A DNA stretch of 64,000 nucleotides from the NCBI GenBank assembly GCA_963789405.1, contig CAWBKL010000005.1, positions 455,976-519,975 on the forward strand. The letters are read 5' to 3'. Of the stretch, positions 3,512 through 39,973 are shown piece by piece; the stretch's first letter is position 1, and every line of letters begins with the position of its first letter. Both the position numbers and the translations under genes were made by a program. The notes under the pieces were generated by a model that was not told the DNA's origin, made no database searches, and saw only the letters and a list, made by a program, of their open reading frames with translations. Source of the stretch: an uncultured Alphaproteobacteria bacterium. Lineage in GTDB: Bacteria; Pseudomonadota; Alphaproteobacteria; CAWBKL01.

Positions 3512-4129
3512 ATGACGAAGCGCGCACCCGCGAAATACAAAATCGACCGCCGCCTTGGCGAAAATCTCTGGGGCCGCCCCAAGAGCCCGCACAACTCCCG
3601 TCAAACCCCGCCCGGCCAGCACGGCGCCCGGCGCCGGGGCAAGCTCTCCGACTTCGGTACGCAGCTCAAGGCCAAGCAGAAGCTGAAGGGCTATTACGGC
3701 AATATCGGCGAGCGGCAGTTCCGAAAATATTATGACGAGGCGCGCCGCCATCCCGGCGACACAGGCGAGAACATGATCGGCATCTTGGAGCGCCGGCTCG
3801 ATGCGATTGTCTATCGCGCGAAGTTCGCGCCGACTGTTTTCTCCTCGCGCCAGCTCGTGAACCACGGCCATGTTGCGGTTAATGGCCGGCGCGTGACCAT
3901 ACCGAGCTATCTTTGCAAGGCGGGCGACAAGATCGAGCTTCGCCAAAAAGCGCGCGAGATGGCGCTGGTAATCGAGGCGCTCGAACTGCCGGAGCGTGAC
4001 GCGCCTGATTATGTCGATGTCGACCGCGCAAAAATGACGGCGACATTCGTGCGCGTCCCGGCCTTTGGCGATGTGCCTTATCCGGTGCACATGGAACCCA
4101 ACCTCGTGGTCGAGTTCTATTCGCGCTAG
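3512..4129 (+). CDS. rpsD: 30S ribosomal protein S4
   Basis: [38 protein letters not shown]...[15 protein letters not shown]...[37 protein letters not shown], 205 aa. Confidence 0.95.
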
Positions 4130-4144
4130 TTTTGCGAATTTGTC

Positions 4145-4167
4145 ATGCTCGGACTTGTTCCGAGCAT
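4145..4167 (+). terminator. stem-loop downstream of rpsD (atgctcgga-cttgt-tccgagcat)
   Basis: Perfect 9-bp inverted repeat 15 bp after the rpsD stop. No clear T-tract, which is common in high-GC genomes. Confidence 0.45.
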
Positions 4168-4239
4168 CCAGGATAGGTCTCCTAAGTGACTGAATCTTCG
4201 GGACAGGCTCGAGGATGACGGGCAGGAGGTCCTCTGCAG

Positions 4240-4866
4240 ATGTACACGCTCTTCGGCGCCAAACGTTCCGGCTCGGCGATGGTCGAGGCGGCGCTTGCCG
4301 AAACCGGTGCGCCTTACGAGGTTACGGCCGTCAATCTCGAAACCGATGAGCAGCGCGGGCCGGCTTACCGCAAGCTCAATCCGACCGGGAAGATCCCGGC
4401 ACTGGTTCTGCCGTCCGGCGCGGTAATGTCGGAATCGGCGGCAATGTTGATTACGCTCGCCGAGCGTCATCCGGAGGCGCATCTGCTGCCGACGATGGGA
4501 TCGGATGAGCGCGCCCAGGCTTTGCGTTGGCTCGTCACGATCGTTGCGGAAATCTATCCGATGATCGAGATCCGCGATTATCCCAAGCGCTTCGCAATCG
4601 GCGAGAAGAACGAAGAAACAATCATCAATGTTGCGCGGAATCGCGCGCGCGAGCGCTGGCTTGCACTTGAAGCGGCGGTTGCCGGATCGCCTTGGCTCTT
4701 GCCGACGGGCTTTTCCATCACCGATCTTGCGATCGCTAACGTATCGCGTTGGACGATCGGCAAGGATTGGCGCATGGCCAATCTGCCGAAGATCGAGGCG
4801 ATCGATGCGGCGATTCTTGCGCGGCCCAAGGCTGGCAAAGTCTGGGCAAATCACTTCAATATTTGA
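4240..4866 (+). CDS. glutathione S-transferase family protein
   Basis: N-terminal thioredoxin-like GST fold (YTLFGAKRSGSAMVEAALAETGAPYEV...KLNPTGKIPALVLPSGAVMSESAAMLITL) and a C-terminal helical domain. Confidence 0.75.
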   Translation: MYTLFGAKRSGSAMVEAALAETGAPYEVTAVNLETDEQRGPAYRKLNPTGKIPALVLPSGAVMSESAAMLITLAERHPEAHLLPTMGSDERAQALRWLVTIVAEIYPMIEIRDYPKRFAIGEKNEETIINVARNRARERWLALEAAVAGSPWLLPTGFSITDLAIANVSRWTIGKDWRMANLPKIEAIDAAILARPKAGKVWANHFNI

Positions 4867-4869
4867 GTC

Positions 4870-5376
4870 TCAATCATTGTCGCCGCCTGCCACGAAGCAC
4901 GCGACATCTGCGGGATTAAGCTTGACGAATTTGCCCGTCGTGAGATCGACCTTATAGGCCCAATCGCTCGGGGCCTTGGCTTGCTCTGCGGGATCTTCCA
5001 CGACAGCCAGGACAGAAGAATCGAACTCACCTTTGAATATGCATGTCGACGCGATCAGCACGCGCCTCTCGCTCGTGCGTGGATAGGTGAGCACATCGGT
5101 GATGAGCCAGCGCGCGCGACCGGATTCATCCAACCCCTGATAGCGGCCGGCGCGAAGCAGAAGCGGTTTGCCGCTCGCATCCGACAGGGTGCCGACGGAA
5201 TATTCGCAAGCGTGCGAACCCCCAACGCATCCGCCGAAATTCTCCGACAGGCCTTGGGGGTAGGGTGGAACAATTGAGCCGGCCACCGTCGGCAGTGCTT
5301 CAGCCCGAGCGCACCATATGAGGCTGACCGCCGCCGCGAGCCAAGGCGTTCGCGGTGAGCTCCAGTGAAGCTTCAT
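4870..5376 (-). CDS. hypothetical secreted Cys-containing protein
   Basis: 168 aa ORF with an N-terminal signal peptide (MKLHWSSPRTPWLAAAVSLIWCARAEA). No recognisable domain. Confidence 0.4.
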   Translation of the reverse strand: MKLHWSSPRTPWLAAAVSLIWCARAEALPTVAGSIVPPYPQGLSENFGGCVGGSHACEYSVGTLSDASGKPLLLRAGRYQGLDESGRARWLITDVLTYPRTSERRVLIASTCIFKGEFDSSVLAVVEDPAEQAKAPSDWAYKVDLTTGKFVKLNPADVACFVAGGDND

Positions 5377-5379
5377 CGG

Positions 5380-5706
5380 CTAGGCTTCGACGGCGATGCC
5401 TTTTTCGGCGAGGAAGTCCTTGAGCTCGCCTTCTTCGAACATCTCGCGCACGATATCGCAGCCGCCGACAAACTCGCCTTTGACGTAAAGCTGCGGAATA
5501 GTCGGCCAGTTCGAGAAGGTCTTGATGCCCTGGCGAATCTCGTCGCTCGCCAGCACATTCACGCTCTTATAGGGCACACCCAGATAAGTCAGGATCTGCA
5601 CGACCGCATTGGAGAATCCGCACTGAGGAAATTGCGGCGTGCCCTTCATGAACAGGACGACCTCGTTGTCCTTGACGGTGTTGGCAATCTGCTCCTGAAC
5701 GCTCAT
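5380..5706 (-). CDS. grxD: monothiol glutaredoxin (CGFS-type, Grx4 family)
   Basis: [24 protein letters not shown]...[23 protein letters not shown], 108 aa. Confidence 0.9.
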
Positions 5707-5800
5707 TTCCGGCTCTCCTTGGCGGCGAGAGAACGGCCGCCCACCCAGCGAAAATGGGAGAGTGGCCCTTCAAGGTCAATGCCTGGCGGGGTGATGGCGG

Positions 5801-6862
5801 CTACGCGCGCACCTCGTAAACCAAGTTGAAGGGCGTCTCGGTGGCGCGCCGGAAGCTCTTGAAGCCAGCCTCTTCGGTCACTTTCCTCATGCGCGCTTCG
5901 CCGGCCTGGGCGCCAAGCGCAAGACCCACTTCCTGGGACTTGGACGCTGGCGTGCAGATCATTGTCGAGGCCGAGTAGAAGATGCGTCCGATGGGATTGA
6001 GATTGTCCCTTAGATCGTCATTGGCGAACGGCTCGACGATCATCCATGTTCCGCCCTCGCCGAGCGTCTCCTTCACGTGCTTGCCGGCGCCGACCGGATC
6101 GCCCATGTCGTGCAGGCAATCGAACATCGCAACGAGATCGTAGCTGTTCGACGGAAAATCCTTCGCGGCTGCACGCTCGAAACTGACGCGGTCCGCAACG
6201 CCGGCCTCTTGCGCAAGCTCTCGCGCACGCACGAGCGAAGGCTCGTGATAATCGAAGCCGTAGAATTTCGATTTCGGGAAGGCTTGCGCCATCACGATCG
6301 TTGATGCGCCATGACCGCAGCCGACATCGGCAACCGCGGCACCGCGCTCAAGCTTCTCCTTCACGCCATTGAGCGCAGGGATCCAGGACGGAACGAGATT
6401 GGCATTGTAGCCGGGGCGGAAGAAGCGCTCCGTGCCGCGAAACAGGCACTGATGATGTTCATGCCAGCCGACTCCCTCGCCGGTCTTGAAAGCCTCCTCG
6501 ATCTTCGGCTCGTCCAGCCAAATGGCGTGCGCTGATTCAAAAGCACCGCCGAAGAAAGCGGGGCTGCCTTCCTCCGCAAAGGCCATTGCCTGCTCGGCAT
6601 TGAGCGAAAAAGCCTTCTTCGCCGGATCGTAGTCGACATAACCGGCGGCCGCCTGCGCTGACAGCCATTCACGCAGATAGCGCGCATCAAGGCCGGTTTT
6701 CTCGGCGAGCGTCTCGGGCGTGTATTCCGTTCCGTCAGCCATCGCCTTATAGATACCGAGCCGGTCGCCGAGCACGACAAGCGCGCCGCTCATGACGGCG
6801 CCCATATCGCCTAACAGCCTGCCAACCAACGCATTGAGCTTGCCTTCGTCAGGTTTCCGCAT
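5801..6862 (-). CDS. class I SAM-dependent methyltransferase with N-terminal winged-helix dimerisation domain
   Basis: Motif I DVGCGHGASTIVMAQAFP. Acidic motif-II region FDYHEPSLVRARE. N-terminal helical/HTH-like segment as in O-MTase-type enzymes. Confidence 0.65.
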   Translation of the reverse strand: MRKPDEGKLNALVGRLLGDMGAVMSGALVVLGDRLGIYKAMADGTEYTPETLAEKTGLDARYLREWLSAQAAAGYVDYDPAKKAFSLNAEQAMAFAEEGSPAFFGGAFESAHAIWLDEPKIEEAFKTGEGVGWHEHHQCLFRGTERFFRPGYNANLVPSWIPALNGVKEKLERGAAVADVGCGHGASTIVMAQAFPKSKFYGFDYHEPSLVRARELAQEAGVADRVSFERAAAKDFPSNSYDLVAMFDCLHDMGDPVGAGKHVKETLGEGGTWMIVEPFANDDLRDNLNPIGRIFYSASTMICTPASKSQEVGLALGAQAGEARMRKVTEEAGFKSFRRATETPFNLVYEVRA

Positions 6863-6892
6863 GGTCGCTCTCCCTCTGTTGGAGCGCGGGAT

Positions 6893-7819
6893 CTATCGCG
6901 GGCCGCCTTGTTGCATATTTTGGATTGGTAGTCCGGCCATCTTCCACGACTCTATACCGCCGCGGTACCACAACACATTTGTGTAGCCCAGATTGATCGC
7001 GCGCAGGGACGCATTATACGACATCCAGCACTCTGGAGAGAGACAATACAGGACGAGCGGATAGTCCTTTTGGCCACGCGTTGCTTGTTGCAGAAATTGT
7101 CCGAACTGCTGCTCAGTTTGATCGTTGAATGTTCCCGGCTGAGACGCTGGCACGGCATATTGCGAGCCGGGGATCACCTCGGGTCCGCCGAGAATGTCGA
7201 GCAGCAGATACGGCGCCTGCTTGCCGTTCACAAGCGAGACGAGACCTTTCGTTGTGATCACTTGCCCGCCCGGGATTGAGGCCGGCGTTGGACCGTGCAT
7301 CTCGCCATCGTGAAGTTGCTTGGTCGGCTTCACGCCGAAATCCTTGCGTTCCAGCTGCATGAGCTGATCGAGATTCATGCCCCGAGCTTGCAGTCCTTGC
7401 TGTGGAAAGCCTTGCCCTGGGCCGCCCTGCTGCGGGGATCCGCCGCCCTGAGCTTGAGGATAGCCCTGCTGCGGCATTCCCTGCTGCGGATAGCCCTGTT
7501 GCGGGTATCCACCTTGCTGCTGAGGATATCCCTGCTGCGCTGGAGCTTGATATTCGCCTTGCTGTTGCGGATAGCCGCCCTGCTGCGGATAGCCGTTCTG
7601 CGGTGCATATCCACCTTGCTGCGGATATCCCTGCTGCGCTGGAGCTTGATATTCGCCTTGCTGCTGCTGCGGATATCCACCCTGTTGCGGAGGAGACTGC
7701 TGATAGTTTGGCTGTTGAGGAGGAGGCCCGCCGAAAGTGTTCTGCGCGAGCGCGGCGCCAACAAGGCACAAGCAAGCGCCTGCGCTCAGAAGGACAATTC
7801 TCAGTGGACGGATGTTCAT
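6893..7819 (-). CDS. secreted protein: signal peptide, long Q/G/Y/P-rich repeat region (GYPQQ units), C-terminal rhodanese-like domain with CLSPECW motif
   Basis: [25 protein letters not shown] signal. About 130 aa of low complexity. C-terminal ...[47 protein letters not shown] resembles the rhodanese fold. 4-nt overlap with the upstream lipoprotein gene. Confidence 0.6.
7510..7712. repeat. tandem duplication, about 101-bp unit x2, inside the Q-rich coding region; the broader low-complexity CAG/CTG-rich stretch spans 7380..7735
   Basis: ccaccttgctgc(t)gaggatatccctgctgcgctggagcttgatattcgccttgctg appears at 7510 and again at 7611. Confidence 0.75.
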
Positions 7820-9045
7820 TGTGTTGGCTCCAATTTCGTGCCGTCTTGGCCTGTAGCGGCGTAAGGATTGAATGACGGGTCGTCCGTCAAGACGTAGCTG
7901 CCATCATTGAGGCGGTAGGCATCGTTATATTGGTTCGAAAGCTCGACCGTGCCTGTCGTGCTCTGGGGATCGTTGTAGGTCTCGACGCCGCGGATCGCTT
8001 CGCTCGTCTCGCGTTGCATGTGATCCTGGATGGCATTTCTCTCTTCCCAGCCCTTCATCTGCATATCGCTGATCTCATTGCCGGTCTGAGCGATGATCTG
8101 CGAGCGCTTTCTCGATTCGCGCAACGCAGTGGCGTTCATTTGCGCCTGCGATTTGTTGATGCGCGCCTGCCATTGCGGGTCCAGCTTGAACGAGGAGCGG
8201 ATCAGCTCCGCGAGCTTGAAGTTGAGCTGGCCATTCGGGGCATGAAACGCATAGGCCGGCAGCGCTTGCGCCGATAGGGAATTCATTGTGCCGCCAGCCG
8301 GGTTCTGCATGTTGCTCGACGAGAAGACGACGACTGCGGCGATCGATTCGCGCTCGTCCGCGCCGTTATTGTTGTAGGCAATGAGCACTTCGCCGGCATC
8401 GACCCAGGTGCGCATGGAGCCCATCGCAGTCGGTGTGTTCTGCTCGAGCTGTTTGAGGCTTTTCAGAAGATCCGGGCGCGGACGAAAATCAAGGATGCGT
8501 GCGCCGGGCCGCTGCGTTTGCACGAGCCAGCCAAGATAATCATGCGCATTGTCCGCTCGGATCGGCGGGCAGCCGGGCGGGGTCGGCGCGCCGAAATTGT
8601 TCATCGACCAAGCGACGCCAGGAATAATTTGTGCGCCGGTCGCGCCATCGGGTGCTGTTGCGTTCCACTGAAACTGATAGCCCGAGCCGCATTGCGCCTG
8701 CACATTCCACACAACCCCGCCCTGCGCCTTCCAGCCGGCCGGAACGAGAATGGTCGCGGCCGTCATGGGCCGTTCGAAGCCGGAAGGGTCGACGATCTGC
8801 GCTGGGCGCAGCCTAATCGCGTCTTTTGGCAGGGCTTTGGCGCCGCCCTGCGGCGGCATCTGGCCCGGCGGCGCGCCGTTTGTGGCGTCCATCTGGGGCT
8901 CGCCATATTGCGCCCCGCCGTCGTCGGCGTCGTCCGCGTTCGATGAACTCTGGTTGCCGCATGCGGCAAGCAACAGTGCTGCCGCCGCCACAAGAAACTG
9001 TGCTCTCACGATAGCTCCCCCTTTCATTCGTGCCGCGCTTAGCAA
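7816..9045 (-). CDS. hypothetical lipoprotein (LAACG lipobox), 409 aa; first gene of a two-gene operon with the Q-rich rhodanese-like protein
   Basis: Signal peptide plus lipobox ([14 protein letters not shown]). Acidic, Gly-rich mature N-terminus. No recognisable domain. ATGA-type overlap with the downstream gene. Confidence 0.5.
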
Positions 9046-9089: not shown

Positions 9090-9320
9090 CTAAGGCACGC
9101 TGGTCTGCAACGCCAGCGCGTGCAACTCGTTGCCCATACGCCCCTTGAGCGCGTCATAAACCATCTGATGCTGCTGAACCCGCGTCTTACCCTTGAACGC
9201 CGCCGAAACAACGACCGCGGCATAATGATCGCCGTCGCCCTGCAAATCCTCGATCGTCACCTGGGCATCCGGAATGCCTTCCTTGATGAGCTTTTCGATC
9301 TCGGCCGGGTTCATCGCCAT
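9090..9320 (-). CDS. BolA family protein
   Basis: 76 aa; ...VTIEDLQGDGDHYAAVVVSAAFKGKTRVQQHQMVYDAL... fits the BolA/YrbA fold. Confidence 0.8.
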   Translation of the reverse strand: MAMNPAEIEKLIKEGIPDAQVTIEDLQGDGDHYAAVVVSAAFKGKTRVQQHQMVYDALKGRMGNELHALALQTSVP

Positions 9321-10729: not shown

Positions 10730-12925
10730 TTAGCCCATCAGCTTGGGCAGGAAGGCTTCATGCGCGGCGCGTAAATCGGCAAGCGAGACGCGGGCGCCGC
10801 CTTCAATGATGATATCGACGCCGCCGACAATGCCGATGCGCTCGGCGGGAACGCCAGCAGCTTCCGCCATCGCTCGAATGCGCGCAGTTGAATGCGGCGA
10901 GCAGGCGATGACATAGCGCCCTTGATCTTCGCCGAACCAATAGGAGGGCTCGGTGCCGGTGGTGATCTCGGTGTCGAGCAGGCATCCGATATTCGAGGCC
11001 AGCGCCATCTCGCCAATCGCAACCAGCAAGCCGCCATCGGAAACATCATGCGCGAAGGAGATCTCGCCTGAAGTGATCAGCTTGCGGACGAAATCGCCAT
11101 TGCGCTTTTCTTCGGCGAGATCGACCGGCGGCGGCGGGCCATGCTCGATGCCTTTGAAGTGACGCAGCAGCAAGGATTGTGCGAGATGGCCGCGCGTCTC
11201 GCCGATCACCACAATGTCGTTGCCGACCTGGCCGAAGCCGACGCGCGCGAAATGCGCAAGATCCTTGAGCAGGCCGACCGCGCCAATCGCCGGCGTCGGC
11301 AGGATCGCTCTGCCTTGCGTTTCGTTGTAGAGCGAGACATTGCCCGAGACGACGGGAAACCCAAGCGCGCGGCAAGCTTCCGCCATGCCCTCGATCGCGG
11401 CGCCGAACTGACCCATGATCTCGGGCCGTTCGGGGTTGCCGAAATTCATGCAGTCGGTCACGGCCAGCGGCGTTGCGCCGACCGCGGTGATATTGCGCCA
11501 CGCTTCGGCAATCGCCTGCTTGCCGCCTTCGAAGGCGTCGGCTTGGACATAGCGCGGCGTGCAATCGGTGGTGATGGCGAGCGCCTTGTTGGTGCCATGC
11601 ACGCGCACAAGCGCGGCGTCCGCGCCGGGCGAGCTCACCGTATCGCCCATGACGGTTGCGTCATATTGATCGGTGATCCAGCGCTTGGAGCAGAGATCGG
11701 CGGTGCCCATGAGCGCGATCAACGCTTCGCCGACATCGCAGTGAATCCATTCCTCTTGCTTGGTCAGCGGCGCGGGCCGCGCGGGCCGCGCGAACGGCCG
11801 CTCATAAACCGGCGAATTGTCTGCAAGCGCAGGCAGGGGGATATCGGCGACCGTCTCGCCCTGATGCTTCAAGACGATATGATTGGTGTCTGTGATCTTG
11901 CCGATCACGGCGACATCCAGGCCCCACTTCTTGAAGATGCGCTCGGCGACATGCGTCTTCTCGGGCTTCAAGACCATGAGCATGCGCTCTTGGCTTTCCG
12001 AGAGCATCATCTCATAGGCGGTCATGTGCGTTTCGCGCTGCGGCACGTGATCGAGATCAAGTTCGATGCCGACGCCGCCTTTGGCCGCCATCTCGACCGA
12101 AGAAGATGTGAGGCCCGCCGCGCCCATGTCTTGAATTGCGATAATCGCATCCTCGGCCATTAGCTCAAGGCACGCCTCGATGAGCAATTTCTCCGTAAAC
12201 GGATCACCCACTTGGACCGTCGGGCGCTTCTCCTCAGAGTTTTCGTCAAACTCGGCGGAAGCCATGGTCGCGCCATGGATGCCGTCGCGCCCGGTCTTGG
12301 AGCCGACATAGACGACCGGATTGCCGACACCTGCTGCGGCCGAATAGAAAATCTTGTCCTTGTCGATGAGGCCGACCGTCATCGCATTGACGAGAATATT
12401 GCCGTTATAGCTTGGATGAAAATTGACTTCGCCGCCGACAGTCGGCACGCCGACGCAATTGCCATAGCCGCCAATGCCGGCAACGACACCCGCCACGAGG
12501 TGGCGCGTCTTCTCATGATCGGGCGCGCCGAATCTGAGCGCATTCATATTGGCGATCGGCCGCGCGCCCATGGTGAAGACATCGCGCAAAATGCCGCCAA
12601 CGCCGGTGGCCGCACCTTGATAGGGCTCGATGAAGCTCGGGTGGTTGTGGCTTTCCATCTTGAAGACGGCAGCCTGGCCATCGCCGATATCGACAATGCC
12701 TGCATTCTCACCCGGACCCTGGATGACTTGCGGGCCCGTCGTCGGCAATTTCTTGAGCCACACTTTGGAAGATTTGTAGGAGCAGTGCTCGCTCCACATC
12801 ACCGAGAAAATGCCAAGCTCGGTCAGATTCGGCGCTCTATTCAGTGCACGGACGATGATCTGATATTCATCTTGGCTGAGACCATGATCTTTGATCAGCT
12901 CCAGCGTTATCTGAGTCATAACCAT
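10730..12925 (-). CDS. purL: phosphoribosylformylglycinamidine synthase subunit PurL
   Basis: 731 aa; [52 protein letters not shown]... Confidence 0.95.
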
Positions 12926-23452: not shown

Positions 23453-26400
23453 ATGAATCGCTGGCTGCCGGCTGCCTTTCTTGCGGCACTATTGGTCATT
23501 GGCGGCATCGCCTATCTCGTGGTCGCAAAGCCGCATTTCGGCGGCACCAAGCCAACCAGTCAGACCACGGAGCAAACCGCATCGGGCAGACCCGCCGGTG
23601 CGGCCGGATCACAGCCGGCGGCGGTCAGCGCCTCGATGACATTCCAGCGATTGAATGTCGACACGTCTGGCGATCGCCCCGAAGCGTGCCTCGTCTTCTC
23701 GCAAAACCTCGATGCTTCCGGCAACACGAGCTATTCCGATTACGTCAAGCTCGATCCCGAGGTGCAGCATTCGGTGCGGGTGAACGGTAACGCGCTGTGC
23801 ATTGGCGGGCTTGAATACGCAAAAGATTACAGCGCCAAGATTCTCACCGGGCTGCCTTCAGTGACTGGGCAGAAGACGACCTACGAAGAGACGGTGCCGA
23901 TCTCGCTTTCGGACCGGCCGGCGGCGATCGCATTTTCCGGCGGAATCATTTTGCCGCGCGAGAGCGAAGGGAAGATCCCCGTCACATCAGTCAATGTCGC
24001 TTCGATGAAGATCAAAGTTCTGCGCGTGGGCGACCGCTTGCTTGCACGGCTCAGCGAAGGCTTGGTCGATTCAAGCGAGCTCTACGATTACGACGCCAGC
24101 CAGATCGAAGACGAAATGGGTTCGCTCGTTTGGCAAGGCACGATGGCGATCGAGGGCAAGAAGAACCAGACAGTCACGACGCTCATTCCGCTGCATGACG
24201 CGATCAAGAGCGAAAAGCCGGGCGTTTATCTCGTGCTCGCGAGCGATGCCAAAGAGAAGAACAAGATCGGCTACGACGAGAACGGCACAGCCGCACAGTG
24301 GGTCATCGACACCGATATCGGCCTCACAAGCTTCCAAGGCGCTGATGGGCTTCACATCTTTGCACGCAGCCTTTCGACGGCAAAGCCGATGTCAGGCGTC
24401 GAAATCGCGCTGGTTGCGCGCAACAATGAGGAGCTTGGGCGCGTCAAAACCGACGGCGACGGCGAAGCGAGCTTCAACGCGGATCTCCTCAAAGGCGCGG
24501 GCGGCGATACACCTGTCGTTGTGATGGCCTATGGCGGGCAGGATTTTGCCTATCTCGATTTGCGCCGGCCAGCTTTCGACTTGAGCGACCGCGGCGTTTC
24601 CGGCCGCGAGCAGCCGGGCCCGGTCGACGCTTATCTCTATCTCGATCGCGGCATCTACCGGCCCGGCGAGTCTGTCTATGTGACGACGCTCTTGCGCGAC
24701 GCATTCGTCAATTCGGTCACCGATTCACCTTTGACGCTGATCGCCAAGCGCCCGGACGGCGTCGAATATCGCCGCATCCAGCTCAATGGCGATCAAGCCA
24801 AAGCCGGCGCATATGCCGCATCGTTTCCGCTCAGCGTGACGGCGCCGCGCGGCCGCTGGCAGATCGCCGCCTATGTCGATCCAACCAGCGCTCCGATCGG
24901 CCGCGTCACGTTCGATGTGCAGGATTTCGTGCCTGAGCGCTTGAAGGTGACGCTGACGCCGAAAGCCGCATTCTACAAGCCGGGCGACATGGTTGAAGTC
25001 GGTGTTGAGGGCCGCTTTCTTTACGGCGCGCCGGCATCGAACCTGACCGGCGAGGGCGAGATGCGCGTCTCGGTCGATCCCAATCCTTTTCCGGACTTGA
25101 AAGGCTATCACTTCGGCCGCGAGGAGGAGCGCTTCCAGGATCAGGTCATCTCGTTGAAGATTGATCCGACCGATTCGAGCGGCCAGACGACAGCAACCGG
25201 CACGCTCGATCTGCCCAATGCAACAACACATCCGCTCCTTGCCATCATCAATGTCGGCTTGACCGAGCCGGGCGGGCGCCTGACGCGCCAAGAGACCAAA
25301 GTGCCGATCCGTACCGGTAATGTGATGGTCGGTATCCATCCCGATTTCAACGATGATTGGGTGCGCGAGAACACACCTGCCAATTTCGAAGTGCTCGCGG
25401 TCGATGCGAATGGCAAACAGCTCGACAAGACGAACATGAGCTATCGCATCGTGCGCGAGGTCGTGCACTATCAATGGTATCAAACGAACGGCAAATGGCA
25501 GTGGGAGCGCCAGACCCGCGATCTGCCTGTCTCCGATGGCAAGCTTGCAGTTGCACCGAACGCGCCCGGCAAGATCTCGGCGACGGAAGAGTGGGGTAGC
25601 TACCGCGTCATCGTTGCCGACAATGAAACAGGTGCCAGCTCATCCTACGAGTTCTTTGTTGGTTGGGGCGGCTCGGCGGCAAATGACCGGCCGGACCGCG
25701 TGGCCGTTTCGCTGGACAAGCAGACCTATAAGCCGGGTGAGAAGGCGACGCTCACCATTCATCCGCCGACGGACGGCAAGGCGCTGATCCTGATCGCTTC
25801 CGACCGCGTCTATCAGAAAGTGCTGATGGACGTGCCGGCATCGGGCGGAACTTATTCCTTCACCGTCGATAAGAAGTGGGGCACTGGCGTTTATGCGCTG
25901 GTCGAGCACTATCGCGGCACGGGTGAAGGCAATTCGCGCGCGCCTGTGCGCTCGATCGGGCTGGCCTGGCTGGGGGTCGATCAAAGCGATCGCAAGATCC
26001 GCGTCACGATCAAGGCACCCGACAAGGTGAAGCCGCAGACCACCGTCGACATTCCCGTGCAAGTCGATGGCGCGCACGGCAAGACCTACATAACGCTCGC
26101 CGCAGTCGATGAAGGCATCTTGCAACTCACTGATTTCGTCTCGCCGTCGCCGAGCGACTATTATTTTGGCAAGCGCAGGCTGGGCGTTGAGATCAGAGAT
26201 GCTTACGGCCGGCTAATTCAGGCGCAGGAAGGCGCGCTCGGCGCGTTGCGCTCAGGCGGCGATAATTTCGGCGGCGGCGAAGGCTTGACCGTCGTGCCGA
26301 CGCGCACGGTCGCGCTTTATTCCGGCCTCGTTGCGGTCAACGGGCAGGGCATTGCGCATGTCAAGCTCGACATCCCTGATTATGTCGGCTCACTCAGGTT

Positions 26401-28321
26401 GATGGCAGTCGCCTTCAACGACAGCCAAGTCGGCGAAGCGAACACGGATCTCATTGTACGCGATTCTGTGGTTGCCGATCTTACATTGCCGCGCTTTCTG
26501 GCGCCGAAAGACAAAGCGAGCGCGACCTTGCTCGTCGACAATGTCGAGGGACCCGCCGGCAATTACCATGTCGATGTCACGACGAGTGGCGCAGTGGTCA
26601 CGAACAAGACCAGCTTCTCGCTCAACCTTGCCGCCAAGGCGCGCCAGATCGTCAGCGTGCCGATCACCGGCGGCGAGCCCGGCATCGGGACCGTGACGCT
26701 CGACTTCCGGGGGCCGGGCAATATCCGCTTCACGCGGGCTTGGCCGATCGAAATCAGGCCCGGCCAGCGTCCGGCAACGACCGAGCAAGTGGCCGAGCTT
26801 GCGCCCGGCGCCACGCTCACGCTCGCGCGCTCCTTGTTCCAGGGCTACTACCCGGGCACGGCGAAGATGTCGGTCTCGCTGGCGTCGAACCGTGCTTATG
26901 ACGTGCCTGCGCTGCTCCGTTGGCTTGATCGCTATCCTTATGGCTGCATCGAGCAGACGACGAGCAGAGCCTATCCCTTGCTTGTCTATAACGATCTCGC
27001 GGCGCAAGCGGGCATTGCGCAGGATGTCGGCGTCAAAGTGCGCGAGCAGAACGCGATCGACAGCGTGCTCGACATGCAAAACGGCTACGGCAATTTCTCG
27101 ATGTGGGGCTGGGGCGGCAGCTCGGCCTATGACTGGCTCTCGGTCTATGCGCTCGACTTCCTGATGAACGCCAAGCAGGCGGGCTATGTCGTGCCGCAGG
27201 ATGCGTTGAACCGCGGCGACAGCTGGCTGCACGGAACGGCGGTGCAGAGCTGGGAGCCGCACGAGGTCCGCTCTTACGCAATGTATGTGCTGGCCAAGCA
27301 GGGCGCGATCAATCTCTCCGACTTGCGCTACTATCACGATACGCAGCTGGGCAAGATGGTCACGCCGATGGCGGCGGCGCATCTGGGTGCAGCGCTCGCG
27401 CAAATGGGCGATAGAAGCCGCGCGCATTCGGCCTTTCTCAAAGCCGTCGATCTTGCAAGCACGCCGATCACCGAAAAGAACATGCCGCCTTACGGCTCGG
27501 ATCTGCGTGAGGTCGCCGGCACAACCGCGCTTGTTGCGCAATCGGGCGAGACGGATTTGTTGCCGAAGCTGTTCGCCCGCACCCAGGAGCTGACGACGAA
27601 CATCGAGGACACATCGACGCAAGAAAAAGCGTGGATGTTGCTCGCAGCCTCGGCTTTGTCGAAGGCGCAAGGGCCTCTATCCGTTGCAGTCAAAGGCGTC
27701 GCCTCACTCGGCAAGGGTCCTATCTATCTCGCCGCGCTCACGCCGGATTCGGTAAATAACGTCGAGGTGAAGAACACCGGTAATGCCAAGGTCTGGTACA
27801 CGGTCGCGATCGATGGGACGCAGATCAACCCGCTGCCGGCGATGTCGCAAGGCGTCTCCATCACCAAGAGCTATTACACGATGGACGGCCAGCCGGTTTC
27901 GCTGTCGAGCCTCAAGCAAAGCCAGCGCGTGATCGTGGTGATCAGCGGGCACATGCCGGACGTAAAGCAGCGCACAATGGGCGTGATCGATCTGTTGCCT
28001 GCAGGGCTCGAGGTCGATGCGCCGCTCGGGCCGGGCGCCGAGGACACTTACAAGTTCTTGCCCGCGCTTACGCCGACCAGTATTGCGCAAAAGCGTGATG
28101 ACCGCTTCGTCGCCGCCTTCGACATTCGCGGCATGCGCCGTCTGACACCGGAGAAGAGGTGGGTCGAGATCATTCCCGACTATGCGGTGGCGTATATCGC
28201 GCGCGCCGTAACGCCGGGCTCATTCGTTCTGCCGGCGGCGACGATCGAGGACATGTACGCCCCGGGCGTGAAAGCACGCACCGACATCGGATCGATCACC
28301 GTCACCGGCCCGAATGGTTGA
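23453..28321 (+). CDS. bacterial alpha-2-macroglobulin family protein (YfhM-like), membrane-anchored, intact thioester motif
   Basis: 1622 aa. N-terminal TM anchor. Thioester site ...DRYPYGCIEQTTSRAYPLL (CxEQ). Followed directly by pbpC, as in the known yfhM-pbpC pairing. Confidence 0.9.
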   Translation: MNRWLPAAFLAALLVIGGIAYLVVAKPHFGGTKPTSQTTEQTASGRPAGAAGSQPAAVSASMTFQRLNVDTSGDRPEACLVFSQNLDASGNTSYSDYVKLDPEVQHSVRVNGNALCIGGLEYAKDYSAKILTGLPSVTGQKTTYEETVPISLSDRPAAIAFSGGIILPRESEGKIPVTSVNVASMKIKVLRVGDRLLARLSEGLVDSSELYDYDASQIEDEMGSLVWQGTMAIEGKKNQTVTTLIPLHDAIKSEKPGVYLVLASDAKEKNKIGYDENGTAAQWVIDTDIGLTSFQGADGLHIFARSLSTAKPMSGVEIALVARNNEELGRVKTDGDGEASFNADLLKGAGGDTPVVVMAYGGQDFAYLDLRRPAFDLSDRGVSGREQPGPVDAYLYLDRGIYRPGESVYVTTLLRDAFVNSVTDSPLTLIAKRPDGVEYRRIQLNGDQAKAGAYAASFPLSVTAPRGRWQIAAYVDPTSAPIGRVTFDVQDFVPERLKVTLTPKAAFYKPGDMVEVGVEGRFLYGAPASNLTGEGEMRVSVDPNPFPDLKGYHFGREEERFQDQVISLKIDPTDSSGQTTATGTLDLPNATTHPLLAIINVGLTEPGGRLTRQETKVPIRTGNVMVGIHPDFNDDWVRENTPANFEVLAVDANGKQLDKTNMSYRIVREVVHYQWYQTNGKWQWERQTRDLPVSDGKLAVAPNAPGKISATEEWGSYRVIVADNETGASSSYEFFVGWGGSAANDRPDRVAVSLDKQTYKPGEKATLTIHPPTDGKALILIASDRVYQKVLMDVPASGGTYSFTVDKKWGTGVYALVEHYRGTGEGNSRAPVRSIGLAWLGVDQSDRKIRVTIKAPDKVKPQTTVDIPVQVDGAHGKTYITLAAVDEGILQLTDFVSPSPSDYYFGKRRLGVEIRDAYGRLIQAQEGALGALRSGGDNFGGGEGLTVVPTRTVALYSGLVAVNGQGIAHVKLDIPDYVGSLRLMAVAFNDSQVGEANTDLIVRDSVVADLTLPRFLAPKDKASATLLVDNVEGPAGNYHVDVTTSGAVVTNKTSFSLNLAAKARQIVSVPITGGEPGIGTVTLDFRGPGNIRFTRAWPIEIRPGQRPATTEQVAELAPGATLTLARSLFQGYYPGTAKMSVSLASNRAYDVPALLRWLDRYPYGCIEQTTSRAYPLLVYNDLAAQAGIAQDVGVKVREQNAIDSVLDMQNGYGNFSMWGWGGSSAYDWLSVYALDFLMNAKQAGYVVPQDALNRGDSWLHGTAVQSWEPHEVRSYAMYVLAKQGAINLSDLRYYHDTQLGKMVTPMAAAHLGAALAQMGDRSRAHSAFLKAVDLASTPITEKNMPPYGSDLREVAGTTALVAQSGETDLLPKLFARTQELTTNIEDTSTQEKAWMLLAASALSKAQGPLSVAVKGVASLGKGPIYLAALTPDSVNNVEVKNTGNAKVWYTVAIDGTQINPLPAMSQGVSITKSYYTMDGQPVSLSSLKQSQRVIVVISGHMPDVKQRTMGVIDLLPAGLEVDAPLGPGAEDTYKFLPALTPTSIAQKRDDRFVAAFDIRGMRRLTPEKRWVEIIPDYAVAYIARAVTPGSFVLPAATIEDMYAPGVKARTDIGSITVTGPNG

Positions 28322-28335
28322 GCTGGCGTTGAACC

Positions 28336-30646
28336 ATGAGCGGCGAAACGCCCAAAGCTGGTTCAGCCAAAACTTCCGTCCCTGTGGGAGGGGAGAAAGG
28401 GCATGAGACTTCTAATTCACCGCCGCCTGAACTCTCTTCGTCACCCGGAGGCTCGGAGGGCCGCGGCGATCCAGTCTTCCTTTCTGGATTGCTTCCCCCG
28501 GCTCAGGACCGGGGTCGCAATGACGTCGCCAATTTGATCAAACGCTTGTTCACCAAGCCGCCGAAGAGGCGCTGGATCGAGATCGCGGCGGCCGTGTTCG
28601 CTGCGCTCACGCTGATCGTCACGCTTGATCTCGTCTTTCCGCCTGATCTCGGCCGCTACAAGGACCGCTCGGTTGAAGTGCGCGCCCAAGATGGTCATTT
28701 GATGCGTGCTTATCTTTCAAATGATGATCAATGGCGCCTGGTCACGCACCCGCAGGATGTCGATCCGCGCTATCTCGCATTTCTCAAAGCGATCGAAGAC
28801 AAGCGCTTCGATTCGCATTGGGGCGTCGATCCGCTCGCCGTGTTGCGCGCCGCCGGCCAATGGATCACTGCGGGTCACATCGTGTCGGGGGCATCGACGC
28901 TCACCATGCAGGCCGAGCGCTTGCTCGAGCCGCGCCCACGCGGGCTCGGTACCAAAGCGCTGCAGGCTTTGCGCGCGCTTCAGCTCGAGCGGCGCTATTC
29001 GAAGAGCAAGATCCTTTCGGTCTATCTCACGCTCGCGCCATTTGGCGGCAATCTCGAAGGCGTGCGCGCTGCGTCGCTTGCCTATTTCGGCAAGGGGCCG
29101 GCGCATCTGACGACGGCGCAAGCGGCGCTTCTTGTCGCTTTGCCGCAATCGCCCGAGCGCATGCGCCCCGATCGGCATCCGGCCAATGCGCGCCAAGGCC
29201 GCGACAAGGTGCTTCACCGCTTGGCCGATGATGGTGTCATCGATCAAGCAACGCTGAATGAAGCGCTGGCCGCGCCAATTCCTGATGCGCGCCGCCCCAT
29301 GCCGTTGATTGCGCCGCGTTTTGCCGATGATCTTTTTGCGACGGCCAAGCCCGGCGAGATCATCCGTACACCAATCGATTTCGAGCGCGAGAAGCAGATC
29401 GAGCGAATGGGCGCCGATGAGCAAAGATGGTTTCCCGATGGCGCCTCGATGGCAGCGATCGTGATTGAGAATCGAAACCGCGAGGTGCGCGCCTATATGG
29501 GCGGGCTCGATTATTGGGGCCGGGCGGGCCAGATCGATCTGGCGCGTGCGGTGCGCTCGCCTGGCTCGGCGCTCAAGCCGTTCATCTATGGCCTCGCTTT
29601 CGATGAGCTGCCGCTTCATCCCGAGACGATCATGCTCGATGAGCCGCTGGTGTTCGGCGATTACGCCCCGCAGAATTTCGATCACGGTTTTCAGGGTATG
29701 GTGAGCGTGCGCCAGGCGCTGCAGATGTCGCTGAACATTCCGGCCGTCGCCGTGCTCGATAAGCTTGGGCCGGTGCGCGTCGCCGAGCTCTTGAAGAGCG
29801 GCGGCGCCAAGCTGTCTTTCCCCTACACGCATGAGCTGCCTGGCCTGCCGATGGCGCTCGGCGGCGTTGGCATCAGCCTGCATCGATCTTGCACAGCTCT
29901 ACGTCGCGCTGGCTGACGAGGGCGTCTATCGCCCGCTGGTGATGAAGCTTGGGGAAAAGCAGCCTTTCGAGCAGCGGCTGATCTCGCGCCGCGCCGCGTG
30001 GTATCTCAAAGACATCCTACGCGGCTCACCGATGCCGGATGGCTGGGGGCGCGGCAGCCAAGTTCACCGGCCGCGTAAGATCGCCTTCAAGACCGGCACC
30101 TCCTACGGCTACCGCGACCAGTGGGCCGTCGGCTATTCGGACCGTTACACGGTGGCGGTTTGGGTTGGGCGCGCTGACGGCTCGGCGCGCCAGCAAGAGG
30201 TCGGACGTAACACCGCCGCGCCGATCGTCTTTAAGATTTTCGATCTCTTGCCGGCTGAGGAGAACACGCGGGACATTCCACCACCTGAGGCTGTTCTGGT
30301 TTCCGACAACACGCTGCTTCCCGAGGCAATGCAGAGGTTTTATGCGGGGCCGCAAAAGCCAGCTGGAAATGTCAGCATGCGGACAAGCGCGCCGCAAATC
30401 GCGTATCCGCCGAACGGCGCAACCTTGCAACTCGGCAACAAGCCTGCCGGCCGGCTGATTGAGCTCAAAGCGACAGGCGGCCAAGGGCCGTTGCGCTGGA
30501 TCGTTAACGGGGAGCTTTTGCCGTCCACGGACTTTCTGTCTCAGACTTTCTGGAAGGCGAAAGGTCCGGGCTTTGTGAAGTTCGTCGTCATCGATTCGGC
30601 CGGCCGTGCGGCGGCTGCGCGCGTGCGCATAAAATTCGACGGCTGA
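28336..30646 (+). CDS. pbpC: penicillin-binding protein 1C (transglycosylase/transpeptidase); frameshift ~29870
   Basis: GT51 transglycosylase motifs (EDKRFDSHWGVD, SGASTLTMQ). The transpeptidase portion continues in ORF 29831..30646 (KTGTSYGYRD). Confidence 0.85.
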
Positions 30647-38130: not shown

Positions 38131-39973
38131 GCTTTCTCTGGGGCGACGTCGTTGGTGAATTACATCGCGCTCTTCTTGTTCATCGCCGCGCGAATTAGCT
38201 TGTTTAGGTCTGAGTGTCCTCCCCATACAGAGACGTTCTTGCGTTCGACGGGCGGAAAATAGCGAGAGGAAAAATAGACTGCTGCTTGAACATACGAAGA
38301 GCCGATGTTTGGATATGCCGAGACAAGAGACATTCTCCGTGGATGAGTTCCGAATTTCGCCACAAGAATCGCAGCAACGGCGCGAAGTGCGTCGTGTCGC
38401 CCAGCATCTCTAAGTATGTCCAGGCACAGCTTAACTAGCGAATCATCGGATTCAGGCATGCGCATCAGAGCTGCTAACACCCACATCCTCTGCCAATCAG
38501 CCATCGATGGGCTTGCCGCGAGTTCTATCAGGGTTTCAAGCACGTTCTTATGGTCTAAGAAGTTTGTGAGGTAAGAGCAATATATCTGCGTCATGGCAGG
38601 CTTGATCTTGAAGTTTTGAATCACGTAGTCGATCGCGTGATCGGAACCCGCCTTCATAAACAGCGGAAGACAAAAACGTTCAATGCTCTCGCTGTAGATG
38701 GGAAATTCGGAAATAGACGCGAAGAGCATCTTTGTCGCGGCCAATTCGATACTCTCGTCGTGGTCCTCATCGAAGTCGTCGTCGTTTTCCCAGTCAATTT
38801 GGAATCCGTAGTCTCCATCGGCGTAGGTTTCGTCAAGCGTGGCAGTGACTTCCTCAACGGCGTCCTGGAATAGCTCATCTAGATCGGGCTCATCTGCCAT
38901 AAGCGATATGCAGGTCGTAAGCGAAGACTTTGTTTCATTGAGCGACAAGTCGTACGTCCGCAAGAACGGGATCAGGTCGAGAAGAAGGTCATCTGCTTTA
39001 TCTGCCGTCGAGAGAAAGACGTAAATGTCGTCTACATACCGCGCAGAACTAAGGTTATTGTCCGACAGATATAGGTCGATCGGGGAGAGATAGAAGTTGC
39101 CGAACAGGTCAGACGGATACATCCCCTGCAAAATTCCGCGCGAGCTTCGTCCTCCGGCGTATACGAGAAGCAAAGCTTCAAGGACATTGAGAAAGCCCTT
39201 AGCATACCCCGCATCGGACAGCGTGTTTATCAAGGTATGCTGATTTATCGAGCCAAAACAATTCGCTATGTCGAGCTTCAAAATGTACTTATTGGCACTC
39301 GACAATGCATGCTTCTTTAGAGCGGTTTGAAGTTCACTCCAACAGAGCCTCGTTGGCTTGAACATAGCCGGGCTGTCAGGCGCCTCGAACTGATGACTGA
39401 ACGATCGTGTGTGATCGGTCTTCTTTTCAATGATGAATGCGGCGGAGTCTGCGAGAGCTTGATATAACAATCTGTCAGCCGGCATCAGTATGCTTCCCGG
39501 TCGCGAGTAGACCGGCCCTAGCCGTTTGGGTGTTGTTCGAACCCGATTGGATTTGGGAACTTCAATTGTTAGGGGTGTCCCTGGGTTGAAGATACCTGAC
39601 TTCAAGTCGCCAACTACGGAGGCGACCAGTTCGTCGTGCGCTTTATCGTAAATGAATCGGAGATGTGGGGCGAAGATAAAGTCAGAACGCGTATTGTAAG
39701 TAATCCTCGCAATTGCAAGGTTCCAGTCGATTTGCTTGAGCAGCGTACCATCCAGTCCAAATGACGGTTTGACCTCGGCAGAAGGCGGCATCTCAAAAAC
39801 TCTCAATCAAGCGAGCACAACGCTATCAGTATTCGCTTAGAACTCAAACTTGTTCTGCGCTCACAACTTGATGCACTCTAAGAGTGCTCCAGGGCTCAAA
39901 TGTCGGCGCAAAAATAAACTCTGGAGTTAAGGCGCGAAACGCTCTCCGGCATATCGAAGCAGGTTGGTGCGGC
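38131..39973. other. low-GC islet (about 48-50% GC versus about 65% in the flanks) carrying a single reverse-transcriptase gene, wedged between the 3' ends of two native genes
   Basis: Composition shifts exactly at the stop codons of the CinA-like gene (38130) and the GFA gene (39974). Confidence 0.7.
38160..39791 (-). CDS. standalone reverse transcriptase (RT domain plus about 250-aa C-terminal alpha-helical domain). Candidate Abi/UG-class defence RT.
   Basis: RT motifs in order: 1 LTIEVPKSNR, 2 SRPGSIL, A ILKLDIANCFGSI, B RGILQGMYPSDLFGNFYLSPID, C YVDDIYVF, D LIPFLRTYDLSLNETKS. No maturase/X or endonuclease domain. Acidic stretch DWENDDDFDEDHDE. ATG at 39791; the ORF track extends it to a TTG at 39806. 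Confidence 0.8.
   Translation of the reverse strand: MPPSAEVKPSFGLDGTLLKQIDWNLAIARITYNTRSDFIFAPHLRFIYDKAHDELVASVVGDLKSGIFNPGTPLTIEVPKSNRVRTTPKRLGPVYSRPGSILMPADRLLYQALADSAAFIIEKKTDHTRSFSHQFEAPDSPAMFKPTRLCWSELQTALKKHALSSANKYILKLDIANCFGSINQHTLINTLSDAGYAKGFLNVLEALLLVYAGGRSSRGILQGMYPSDLFGNFYLSPIDLYLSDNNLSSARYVDDIYVFLSTADKADDLLLDLIPFLRTYDLSLNETKSSLTTCISLMADEPDLDELFQDAVEEVTATLDETYADGDYGFQIDWENDDDFDEDHDESIELAATKMLFASISEFPIYSESIERFCLPLFMKAGSDHAIDYVIQNFKIKPAMTQIYCSYLTNFLDHKNVLETLIELAASPSMADWQRMWVLAALMRMPESDDSLVKLCLDILRDAGRHDALRAVAAILVAKFGTHPRRMSLVSAYPNIGSSYVQAAVYFSSRYFPPVERKNVSVWGGHSDLNKLIRAAMNKKSAM

Follow-up and report, generated by a model that had tools for sequence, protein, structure and literature searches.

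On the minus strand of a 64-kb stretch of DNA from an uncultured alphaproteobacterium (contig CAWBKL010000005.1; the whole of the 64,000 nucleotides analysed is called the window below), a gene for a lipoprotein without a recognisable domain is followed by a gene for an exported protein in which a long Gln/Gly/Pro/Tyr-rich stretch precedes a rhodanese-like domain. The locus raises the question of whether the two proteins belong together and, if they do, whether the rhodanese is connected with periplasmic dehydrogenases dependent on pyrroloquinoline quinone (PQQ), as a preliminary description made from the sequence had proposed. The results reported here indicate that a new clade of rhodaneses, a known domain, and an undescribed partner family constitute a conserved, horizontally mobile two-gene module, to which the PQQ association does not appear to extend.

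The two genes had been described as an operon, and their structure agrees with this. Two open reading frames (ORFs) are present on the minus strand, at 7816..9045 (409 aa from a TTG) and 6893..7819 (308 aa), and they share a 4-nt ATGA stop/start overlap (7816..7819), in which the upstream frame ends with ACA CAA TGA and the downstream frame starts with the ATG at 7819-7817. A GGAG site is located 8 nt upstream of this ATG, and the overlap suggests that translation of the lipoprotein and rhodanese genes is coupled. The 409-residue ORF of the lipoprotein is real, but its likely start is GTG 9009 rather than TTG 9045, which reduces the product to 397 aa (7816..9009): a GGGGAG ribosome-binding site is found at 9020-9015, five bases before GTG 9009, and the database gene call (P0001) is a 397-aa protein identical to the product from this codon. 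The public call for the rhodanese gene (P0122, 161 aa) begins at the internal Met148 and omits the signal peptide, the QNTFG N-terminus of the mature protein and the entire repeat region; calls that appear to be shortened in a similar way (150-175 aa) were seen for about 10 of the 120 listed homologues. Since the frame is continuous, the start has both a ribosome-binding site and the ATGA coupling, and the N-terminus aligns with 40 homologues, the 308-aa form is regarded as correct and P0122, judging from the sequence, as truncated.

Co-conservation of the lipoprotein and rhodanese genes

A scan of 185,579 species-representative genomes yielded 169 relatives of the lipoprotein, for which 80 loci were retrieved; rhodanese partners were then found by a local iterative hidden Markov model (HMM) search of these loci. 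The relatives come from Alpha-, Beta-, and Gammaproteobacteria and Gemmatimonadota, with a few from Planctomycetota and from metagenome-assembled genomes (MAGs) labelled 'Delta'. Named carriers include Parvularculaceae, Hyphococcus, Marinicaulis, Competibacteraceae, Steroidobacteraceae, Burkholderiaceae, Limnobacter, and Lautropia, and the closest relative, at 57%, is that of Nitrococcus mobilis.

Strict criteria place a rhodanese gene directly after the lipoprotein gene, in the same orientation, in 51 loci. About nine further loci count once over-extended ORF starts are allowed (L016, L018, L020, L021, L023, L032, L038, L044, L078, and L080; L026, with a distance of 320 nt), which brings the total to about 60 of the 80 loci with enough downstream sequence. 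These loci belong to Alpha-, Beta-, and Gammaproteobacteria and Gemmatimonadota. The 4-nt ATGA overlap of the window recurs in 26 of 84 loci. The association is also seen from the opposite direction: all four loci reached from rhodanese homologues on long contigs adjoin a gene of the lipoprotein family, which is immediately upstream in three of them and divergent in the fourth. Co-conservation, set beforehand as the test of the pair, was thus found from either side.

Clustering of all ORFs of the 84 loci against each other revealed no other neighbour common to more than 10 loci, the next clusters being antisense shadow ORFs or cases of synteny in at most 10 loci. Adjacency to grxD is confined to four alphaproteobacterial loci; in L003, L011, and L017, grxD is directly upstream of the lipoprotein gene. 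The lipoprotein tree is patchy with respect to taxonomy (e.g., Limnobacter falls within a Parvularculaceae clade), a pattern compatible with transfer of the two genes together.

The rhodanese domain, its loop and its tether

The product of the second gene starts with a Sec-type signal peptide (residues 1-25; 7745..7819, minus strand as for all features of the pair), for which cleavage after A-L-A, between ALA and QNTFG, was read by eye; aligned signal peptides occur in 40 homologues, in agreement with the earlier designation of the protein as secreted. The rhodanese-like domain, together with a conserved N-terminal extension, occupies residues 147-305 (6905..7381). The preliminary description had made this assignment depend on fold recognition, which supports it. 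PF00581 matches residues 215-294 in the C-terminal region with E=4e-8 and 34.1 bits (gathering cut-off 22.2). In an AlphaFold2 model computed from a 40-sequence alignment, the predicted local distance difference test score (pLDDT) of residues 147-305 is 87-97 in most 10-residue blocks and 74 in one block, and a Foldseek search with the model found 35 solved rhodaneses in the PDB at E<=1e-3 with probability 1.00 (best E=5e-6; template modelling (TM) scores of 0.6-0.7 relative to single-domain rhodanese targets).

The putative active-site loop reads C259-L-S-P-E-C264-W (residues 259-265; 7025..7045). The first cysteine aligns with the first Cys of the loop of BH2092 from Bacillus halodurans (PDB ID: 3NHV/3O3W), which has the same fold, an identical C-x4-C spacing and Pro at +3, and, via a two-residue gap, with the Cys of 6MXV; we take this position to be the catalytic position of rhodaneses. 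The CLSPECW motif is located where it had been placed initially. Like BH2092, the single-domain rhodaneses 6MXV, YgaP, and TSTD1 share the fold, at only 16-22% sequence identity to the window protein. To our knowledge, all four reside in the cytoplasm or in a membrane and have neither a tether nor a partner lipoprotein; BH2092 itself is uncharacterised. Both cysteines and the tryptophan of the pattern C-x-S-x-x-C-W are kept in all 120 listed rhodanese homologues, and the domain is 60-82% identical across homologues from different phyla (40-66% for the lipoprotein). The CLSPECW loop does not contain any basic residue; the loops of classical thiosulfate sulfurtransferases (PspE, GlpE, and bovine rhodanese) commonly carry them. 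Phosphatases and arsenate reductases of the Cdc25/Acr2 type have a C-x5-R loop, and membership in this group was considered and rejected: position +6 is Trp, not Arg, in all 120 listed homologues.

Between the signal peptide and the domain, the protein contains a low-complexity stretch of 116 residues (31-146; 7382..7729), consisting of 35% Q, 22% G, 18% P, and 10% Y, in which just three residues are charged. AlphaFold2 assigns pLDDT values of 41-50 to residues 21-145, and the stretch is predicted to be disordered, as had been suggested for the Q/G/Y/P repeats. A recent duplication accounts for part of it: a 99-nt (33-codon) unit is repeated in tandem at 7479..7691 (Tandem Repeats Finder: 2.1 copies, 87% matches, score 311). 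The corresponding linker in homologues has 23-99 residues with a median of 54, so that the 116 residues of the window protein are the longest seen, and the enrichment in tyrosine is shared with some homologues, not with the family as a whole.

Both ends of this linker are conserved while its length varies from 23 to 116 aa. On its N-terminal side, the mature protein begins with QNTFG (7730..7744), an instance of the consensus Q-[DN]-[ST]-F-G, in which Q26, F29, and G30 vary little or not at all in the alignment of 40 homologues. The consensus is found in 104 of the 120 listed homologues and in 51 of 60 locus partners, with four near variants besides, and is absent from both the Sinorhizobium meliloti and the Azospirillum relatives discussed below; it is specific to the lipoprotein-linked rhodanese clade. 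Since cleavage by signal peptidase depends on no more than the -3 and -1 positions, this conservation argues for a function of the pentapeptide itself. The initial idea of a spacer can accordingly be refined: it is retained in the form of a tether of variable length that joins a conserved pentapeptide to the domain. Disordered periplasmic linkers, such as the Q-rich linker of FtsN, the Pro-rich linker of TonB, or that of LpoB, are likewise Pro/Gln-rich and variable in length, and let a folded domain reach across the periplasm. The tether of the window protein differs from them in joining the domain to a short conserved peptide rather than to a membrane anchor, in being unusually rich in Tyr and Gly, and in belonging to a clade whose tail can also be at the C-terminus.

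About one in six rhodanese homologues also has such a C-terminal Q/P tail, often ending with GGWP[NQ]Q. Tails of this type occur in seven of the eight loci with a tandem lipoprotein paralogue versus seven of 50 others (Fisher p=8e-5). Two or three tandem lipoprotein paralogues upstream of the rhodanese gene, the rhodanese in turn bearing the additional GGWP[NQ]Q-type tail, were observed in L055, L057, L062, L066, L070-L072, L075, and L082. In L064, from a Steroidobacteraceae MAG, a single lipoprotein gene is surrounded by three rhodanese paralogues (4019-4978 on the minus strand, 7011-7910 and 7666-8544 on the plus strand of that locus). Both loop cysteines have been lost from one of these rhodaneses (GRSLNEW), and long C-terminal GYPQQ/GYGQQ tails are present in two.

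The lipoprotein family

The signal peptide and lipobox of the lipoprotein are encoded at 8959..9009. By eye, the lipobox reads L-A-A-C17, which conforms to the pattern [LVI][ASTVI][GAS]C after a signal peptide; lipidation is assigned to Cys17, and the +2 residue is Gly. From the rule for the +2 residue, here Gly, the protein is probably located in the outer membrane.

The absence of a recognisable domain, noted at the outset, held in every search. NCBIfam and Pfam returned only weak matches to lipoprotein signal regions (LptM models), those of NCBIfam being confined to the signal-peptide region; there was no Pfam match for the window lipoprotein itself or for any of 48 diverse aligned members, and none in PADLOC. 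A profile search of PDB sequences gave 0 matches at E<=10, Foldseek against the PDB found nothing below E=1e-3, and against a viral library it produced only noise with TM scores of about 0.1 (e.g., levivirus maturation proteins). The family is nevertheless large: an exhaustive HMM search of 1.84 billion representatives detected 2,211 representative clusters at E<=1e-3 and 1,320 at E<=1e-10, each cluster being a 50% identity representative.

The alignment of the family has 26 invariant positions, two of which are the cysteines C107 and C147 (397-aa numbering), and a strongly conserved C-terminal block. In an AlphaFold2 model (mean pLDDT 85.5), an alpha/beta domain rich in beta structure (residues 67-272) is followed by one helix of about 63 residues (278-340) and then by a small beta domain (342-395). 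The C107/C147 pair is kept alike in lipoproteins with and without an adjacent rhodanese; for this reason, it probably represents a structural disulfide and not a client of the rhodanese.

The top Foldseek matches to the N-terminal domain are Mog1/PsbP-like proteins, namely DUF1795 chaperones (SciW/EagT6) and the mycobacterial lipoproteins LpqN and Mtc28. Despite probabilities of 0.84-1.00, the similarity is weak, with E-values from 3e-3 to 2e-2 and TM scores, relative to the target, of 0.33-0.46. A 'vP.GW' strand motif is common to both groups, whereas Mog1/PsbP-like proteins have nothing that corresponds to the long helix or to the C-terminal beta domain, and an hhalign comparison with the PsbP-like domains found fused to distant relatives covered 14 columns only, with a non-significant probability of 2%. 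A Mog1/PsbP-like fold of the N-terminal domain may be considered a lead from the model. Some distant metagenomic relatives carry extra N-terminal modules on the family core (PsbP-like, PDZ, Sel1 repeats, and SHOCT; P0291, P0367, P0372, P0385, and P0369), which are binding rather than catalytic modules.

Possible roles of the pair and its genomic surroundings

The most likely reading, to which we give an even chance, is that of a self-contained two-protein module of the cell envelope, composed of a membrane-anchored docking lipoprotein and a tethered dithiol or persulfide rhodanese. The lipoprotein would be the dedicated docking or scaffolding partner, and the translationally coupled second gene would supply a Sec-exported single-domain rhodanese with a C-x-S-x-x-C-W loop. 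C259, at the canonical catalytic position, could be assisted by C264, five residues on, as a resolving cysteine, so that the domain would cycle between dithiol and disulfide, or persulfide, states and pass reducing equivalents or sulfane sulfur to a client in the envelope. The Q/P/G-rich stretch would serve as a disordered, evolutionarily elastic tether between the catalytic domain and the pentapeptide Q-D/N-S/T-F-G, the latter acting as a docking motif.

The chemistry in this proposal is suggested by the invariant two-cysteine loop and by three independent periplasmic thiol contexts in which related proteins occur. The first is TsoB, a 'rhodanese/DsbD fusion-like selenoprotein' (NF045694), whose N-terminal rhodanese module aligns with residues 185-304 (E=5e-8 for the window protein, down to 1e-11 in homologues). 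The TsoB model covers 572 residues and includes a DsbD-like membrane module, and only the domain is shared with it, because the window protein scores 32 bits, far below the cut-off of 805. The second is provided by the Azospirillum protein WP_012975489 (plasmid pAB510e), which is 44% identical to the window rhodanese, has the loop C-L-S-A-E-C-W, and is itself a lipoprotein (LAAC lipobox) without a tether. In Azospirillum sp. B510, the gene for this lipidated C-x4-C-W rhodanese shares an operon (L085, from pAB510e; 4829-7881) with genes for an exported thioredoxin-fold protein (WCVPC), a protein of 427 aa in which units of the form 'YL..N.DL..AFG.D...A..HY...G..EGR' recur, and a 114-aa protein. 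The third is the family TIGR03865, whose members accompany SoxYZ-like, SoxH-like, and thioredoxin-like genes and for which redox control or enzyme maturation is suspected, not shown (PMC12997753). The general idea of a periplasmic redox or sulfur accessory pair, as voiced in the preliminary description, seems right, as does the architecture that it gave. Two further observations concern the Azospirillum operon: it adjoins a helix-turn-helix regulator and an IS1380 element, and its 427-aa protein, considered as an analogous partner, is unrelated to the window lipoprotein according to hhalign.

Several points weigh against this proposal. The lipoprotein occurs without an adjacent rhodanese in about 18 of the 80 loci, which partly form subclades of their own in the lipoprotein tree (Pseudomonadales, Planctomycetota, and 'Delta' loci); it can therefore act alone or with a partner encoded elsewhere. 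A lipobox-like motif is shown by only about half of the family (29 of 48 and 58 of 120 members). The cysteine pair of the lipoprotein, tried as the client of the rhodanese, is an unlikely one, being equally conserved at loci without an adjacent rhodanese. Physical contact of the two proteins, like the membrane location and the role of the pentapeptide, is inferred. A loop with no basic residue means that sulfur transfer is not assured, and C259 and C264 may be no more than a static disulfide under the oxidising conditions of the periplasm. The correlation between lipoprotein paralogues and C-terminal tails suggests a rule of 'one tail, one lipoprotein', which would fit the tails as docking leashes and is a lead, not a result; it derives for the most part from one group of related loci (of the Parvularculaceae type) and could go back to one event.

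A bolder form of the proposal is doubtful. In it, the pair would be an undescribed periplasmic relay for thiols or sulfane sulfur, independent of Dsb and Sox, in which a lipoprotein with a new fold captures the pentapeptide and, in some lineages, a second paralogue captures the C-terminal GGWPxQ tail. Leash length would set the reach of the domain and evolve by repeat expansion, and the module would move between phyla as a unit.

An unlikely alternative holds that the pair is a non-catalytic structural or adhesive element of the envelope, with the rhodanese as a binding module stabilised in a static disulfide and a lipoprotein-anchored Q/G/P/Y region that is functional in its own right as a peptidoglycan-spanning, elastic or self-associating matrix element. 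Such a role would agree with the recurrence of low-complexity tails at either end of the protein, with their recent enlargement by tandem duplication in the window, with the fusion of lipoprotein-core relatives to binding modules, and with the absence of basic residues from the loop; the composition also seems to resemble that of elastomeric proteins or Q-rich periplasmic linkers (glutenin, silk, and FtsN-type linkers). The tails, however, are poorly conserved in length (23-116 aa), sequence, and position, and are Tyr-rich in some members only, while few features of the family are as well conserved as the domain and both cysteines. A purely structural role would hardly account for a loop with two cysteines that is conserved at the catalytic position in different phyla.

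It is quite unlikely that the protein is an ordinary periplasmic thiosulfate/cyanide sulfurtransferase of the PspE type, involved in detoxification or sulfur scavenging, and that the lipoprotein is unrelated to it or a mere chaperone. An exported rhodanese fold with Cys at the catalytic position is what such an enzyme would have. On the other hand, the tight and reciprocal pairing across phyla with translational coupling argues for a joint function, the C-x4-C-W loop without Arg or Lys departs from what is generally known of PspE, GlpE, and bovine rhodanese, and the closest curated relatives belong to thiol-relay contexts, not to thiosulfate sulfurtransferases.

A role as an accessory of a periplasmic PQQ-dependent dehydrogenase, with the rhodanese as a TIGR03865 member servicing a quinoprotein, is very improbable. 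The best NCBIfam match of the window rhodanese is indeed TIGR03865 (PQQ_CXXCW; E=9e-27), so that the family to which the preliminary description pointed, the PQQ-associated CXXCW proteins, is the closest curated one, and many homologues carry a PQQ name in records of the Joint Genome Institute (JGI) pipeline. Both groups consist of exported single-domain rhodaneses with a Cys...Cys-Trp loop, after which they share [ML]S[YW]NA..RA...GY..V.WY..G..W..AG. Membership is nonetheless rejected by the score, since 94 bits fall short of the curated cut-off of 128.05. Five other members of the clade reach 92-100 bits and the Azospirillum protein 108 bits, also below the cut-off, compared with 244.6 bits for a genuine member from S. 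meliloti, annotated as such by the Prokaryotic Genome Annotation Pipeline (PGAP; pSymB WKL25107). The latter protein is 30-34% identical, has a 17-residue insertion, lacks both the QDSFG N-terminus and the Q/P tether, and its loop, CLDGCW (C-x3-C-W), is one residue shorter than the C-x4-C-W loop found here, in this comparison with one genuine member.

The neighbourhoods differ as well. The S. meliloti gene lies among xoxF-like, cytochrome c, ABC-transporter, and DUF3280 genes; here, the conserved partner is the lipoprotein and not the ABC-transporter, beta-propeller, or cytochrome genes of the TIGR03865 neighbourhood, and the cluster of PQQ dehydrogenase, ABC transporter, cytochrome, and relay genes is not among the conserved neighbours of the pair. 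Searched by tblastn with S. meliloti XoxF, a PQQ-dehydrogenase homologue was found within 6 kb in only two of 83 loci (L020 and L038) and nowhere in the 64-kb window; in L001, a PQQ dehydrogenase, an SBP_bac_3 protein, and a cytochrome c are about 7 kb away. Because of the score below the cut-off, the identity of 30-34%, the different loop and the different neighbourhood, the rhodanese clade of the window is best described as the sister clade and closest relative of TIGR03865, not as part of it, and the proposed quinoprotein link is not supported. The DUF3280 lipoprotein beside the S. meliloti gene was also examined as an analogous partner and rejected, since hhalign finds it unrelated to the window lipoprotein. 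A functional study of either family was not found in the literature searched, which offered only a review calling PP_2666 of Pseudomonas putida (TIGR03865) uncharacterised.

Finally, that the adjacency is fortuitous, the low-complexity half untranslated and the 161-aa call correct is barely credible: the public annotation does start at Met148 and the repeats do create ORFs in several frames, but the frame is continuous from ATG 7819 with its GGAG site and ATGA overlap, alignment with 40 homologues places the signal peptide and QNTFG in the frame of the domain, the 161-aa product would lack the export signal that most homologues have, and the pair is co-conserved in about 60 of 80 loci.

On present evidence, the pair is a conserved module of moderate interest and not a field-changing one. 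A functional handle on the lipoprotein family, which spans several phyla in its 2,211 clusters and has neither a Pfam or NCBIfam model nor a solved relative, would allow the annotation of thousands of genes. Automatic pipelines widely mislabel the rhodanese clade as 'PQQ-dependent catabolism-associated', and recognition of a separate, lipoprotein-linked sister clade corrects this label; comparison of the two may in turn help to find out what the true TIGR03865 proteins do in lanthanide/PQQ alcohol oxidation. The tether between two conserved elements also constitutes a simple natural system for relating linker length to periplasmic reach.

The pair is surrounded by housekeeping genes: rpsD, a glutathione S-transferase gene, grxD, bolA, a beta-carbonic anhydrase gene, and purL. 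A 76-aa BolA-like ORF (9090-9320, minus strand) closely precedes the lipoprotein gene. The pair and a methyltransferase gene sit between purL (10730-12925, minus strand) and grxD (5380-5706, minus strand), and the window resembles the purL-bolA-grxD arrangement, which we take to be typical of Alphaproteobacteria. The methyltransferase, an Rv2258c-like enzyme dependent on S-adenosylmethionine with an N-terminal winged-helix domain, is encoded at 5801-6862 (minus strand). Its gene begins 31 nt past the end of the rhodanese gene and may share a transcript with the pair; it is not conserved beside the pair in other loci. Directly downstream of grxD, an exported protein of 168 aa without a Pfam family is encoded at 4870-5376 (minus strand).

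Farther along the window are a polysaccharide cluster and, at 23453-29916 (plus strand), genes for a bacterial alpha-2-macroglobulin (1622 aa) and then a PBP1c-like transglycosylase/transpeptidase, presumably the known periplasmic 'innate defence' gene pair. A 548-aa ORF with a reverse-transcriptase domain (RVT_1, E=4e-14) is found at 38160-39806 on the minus strand.

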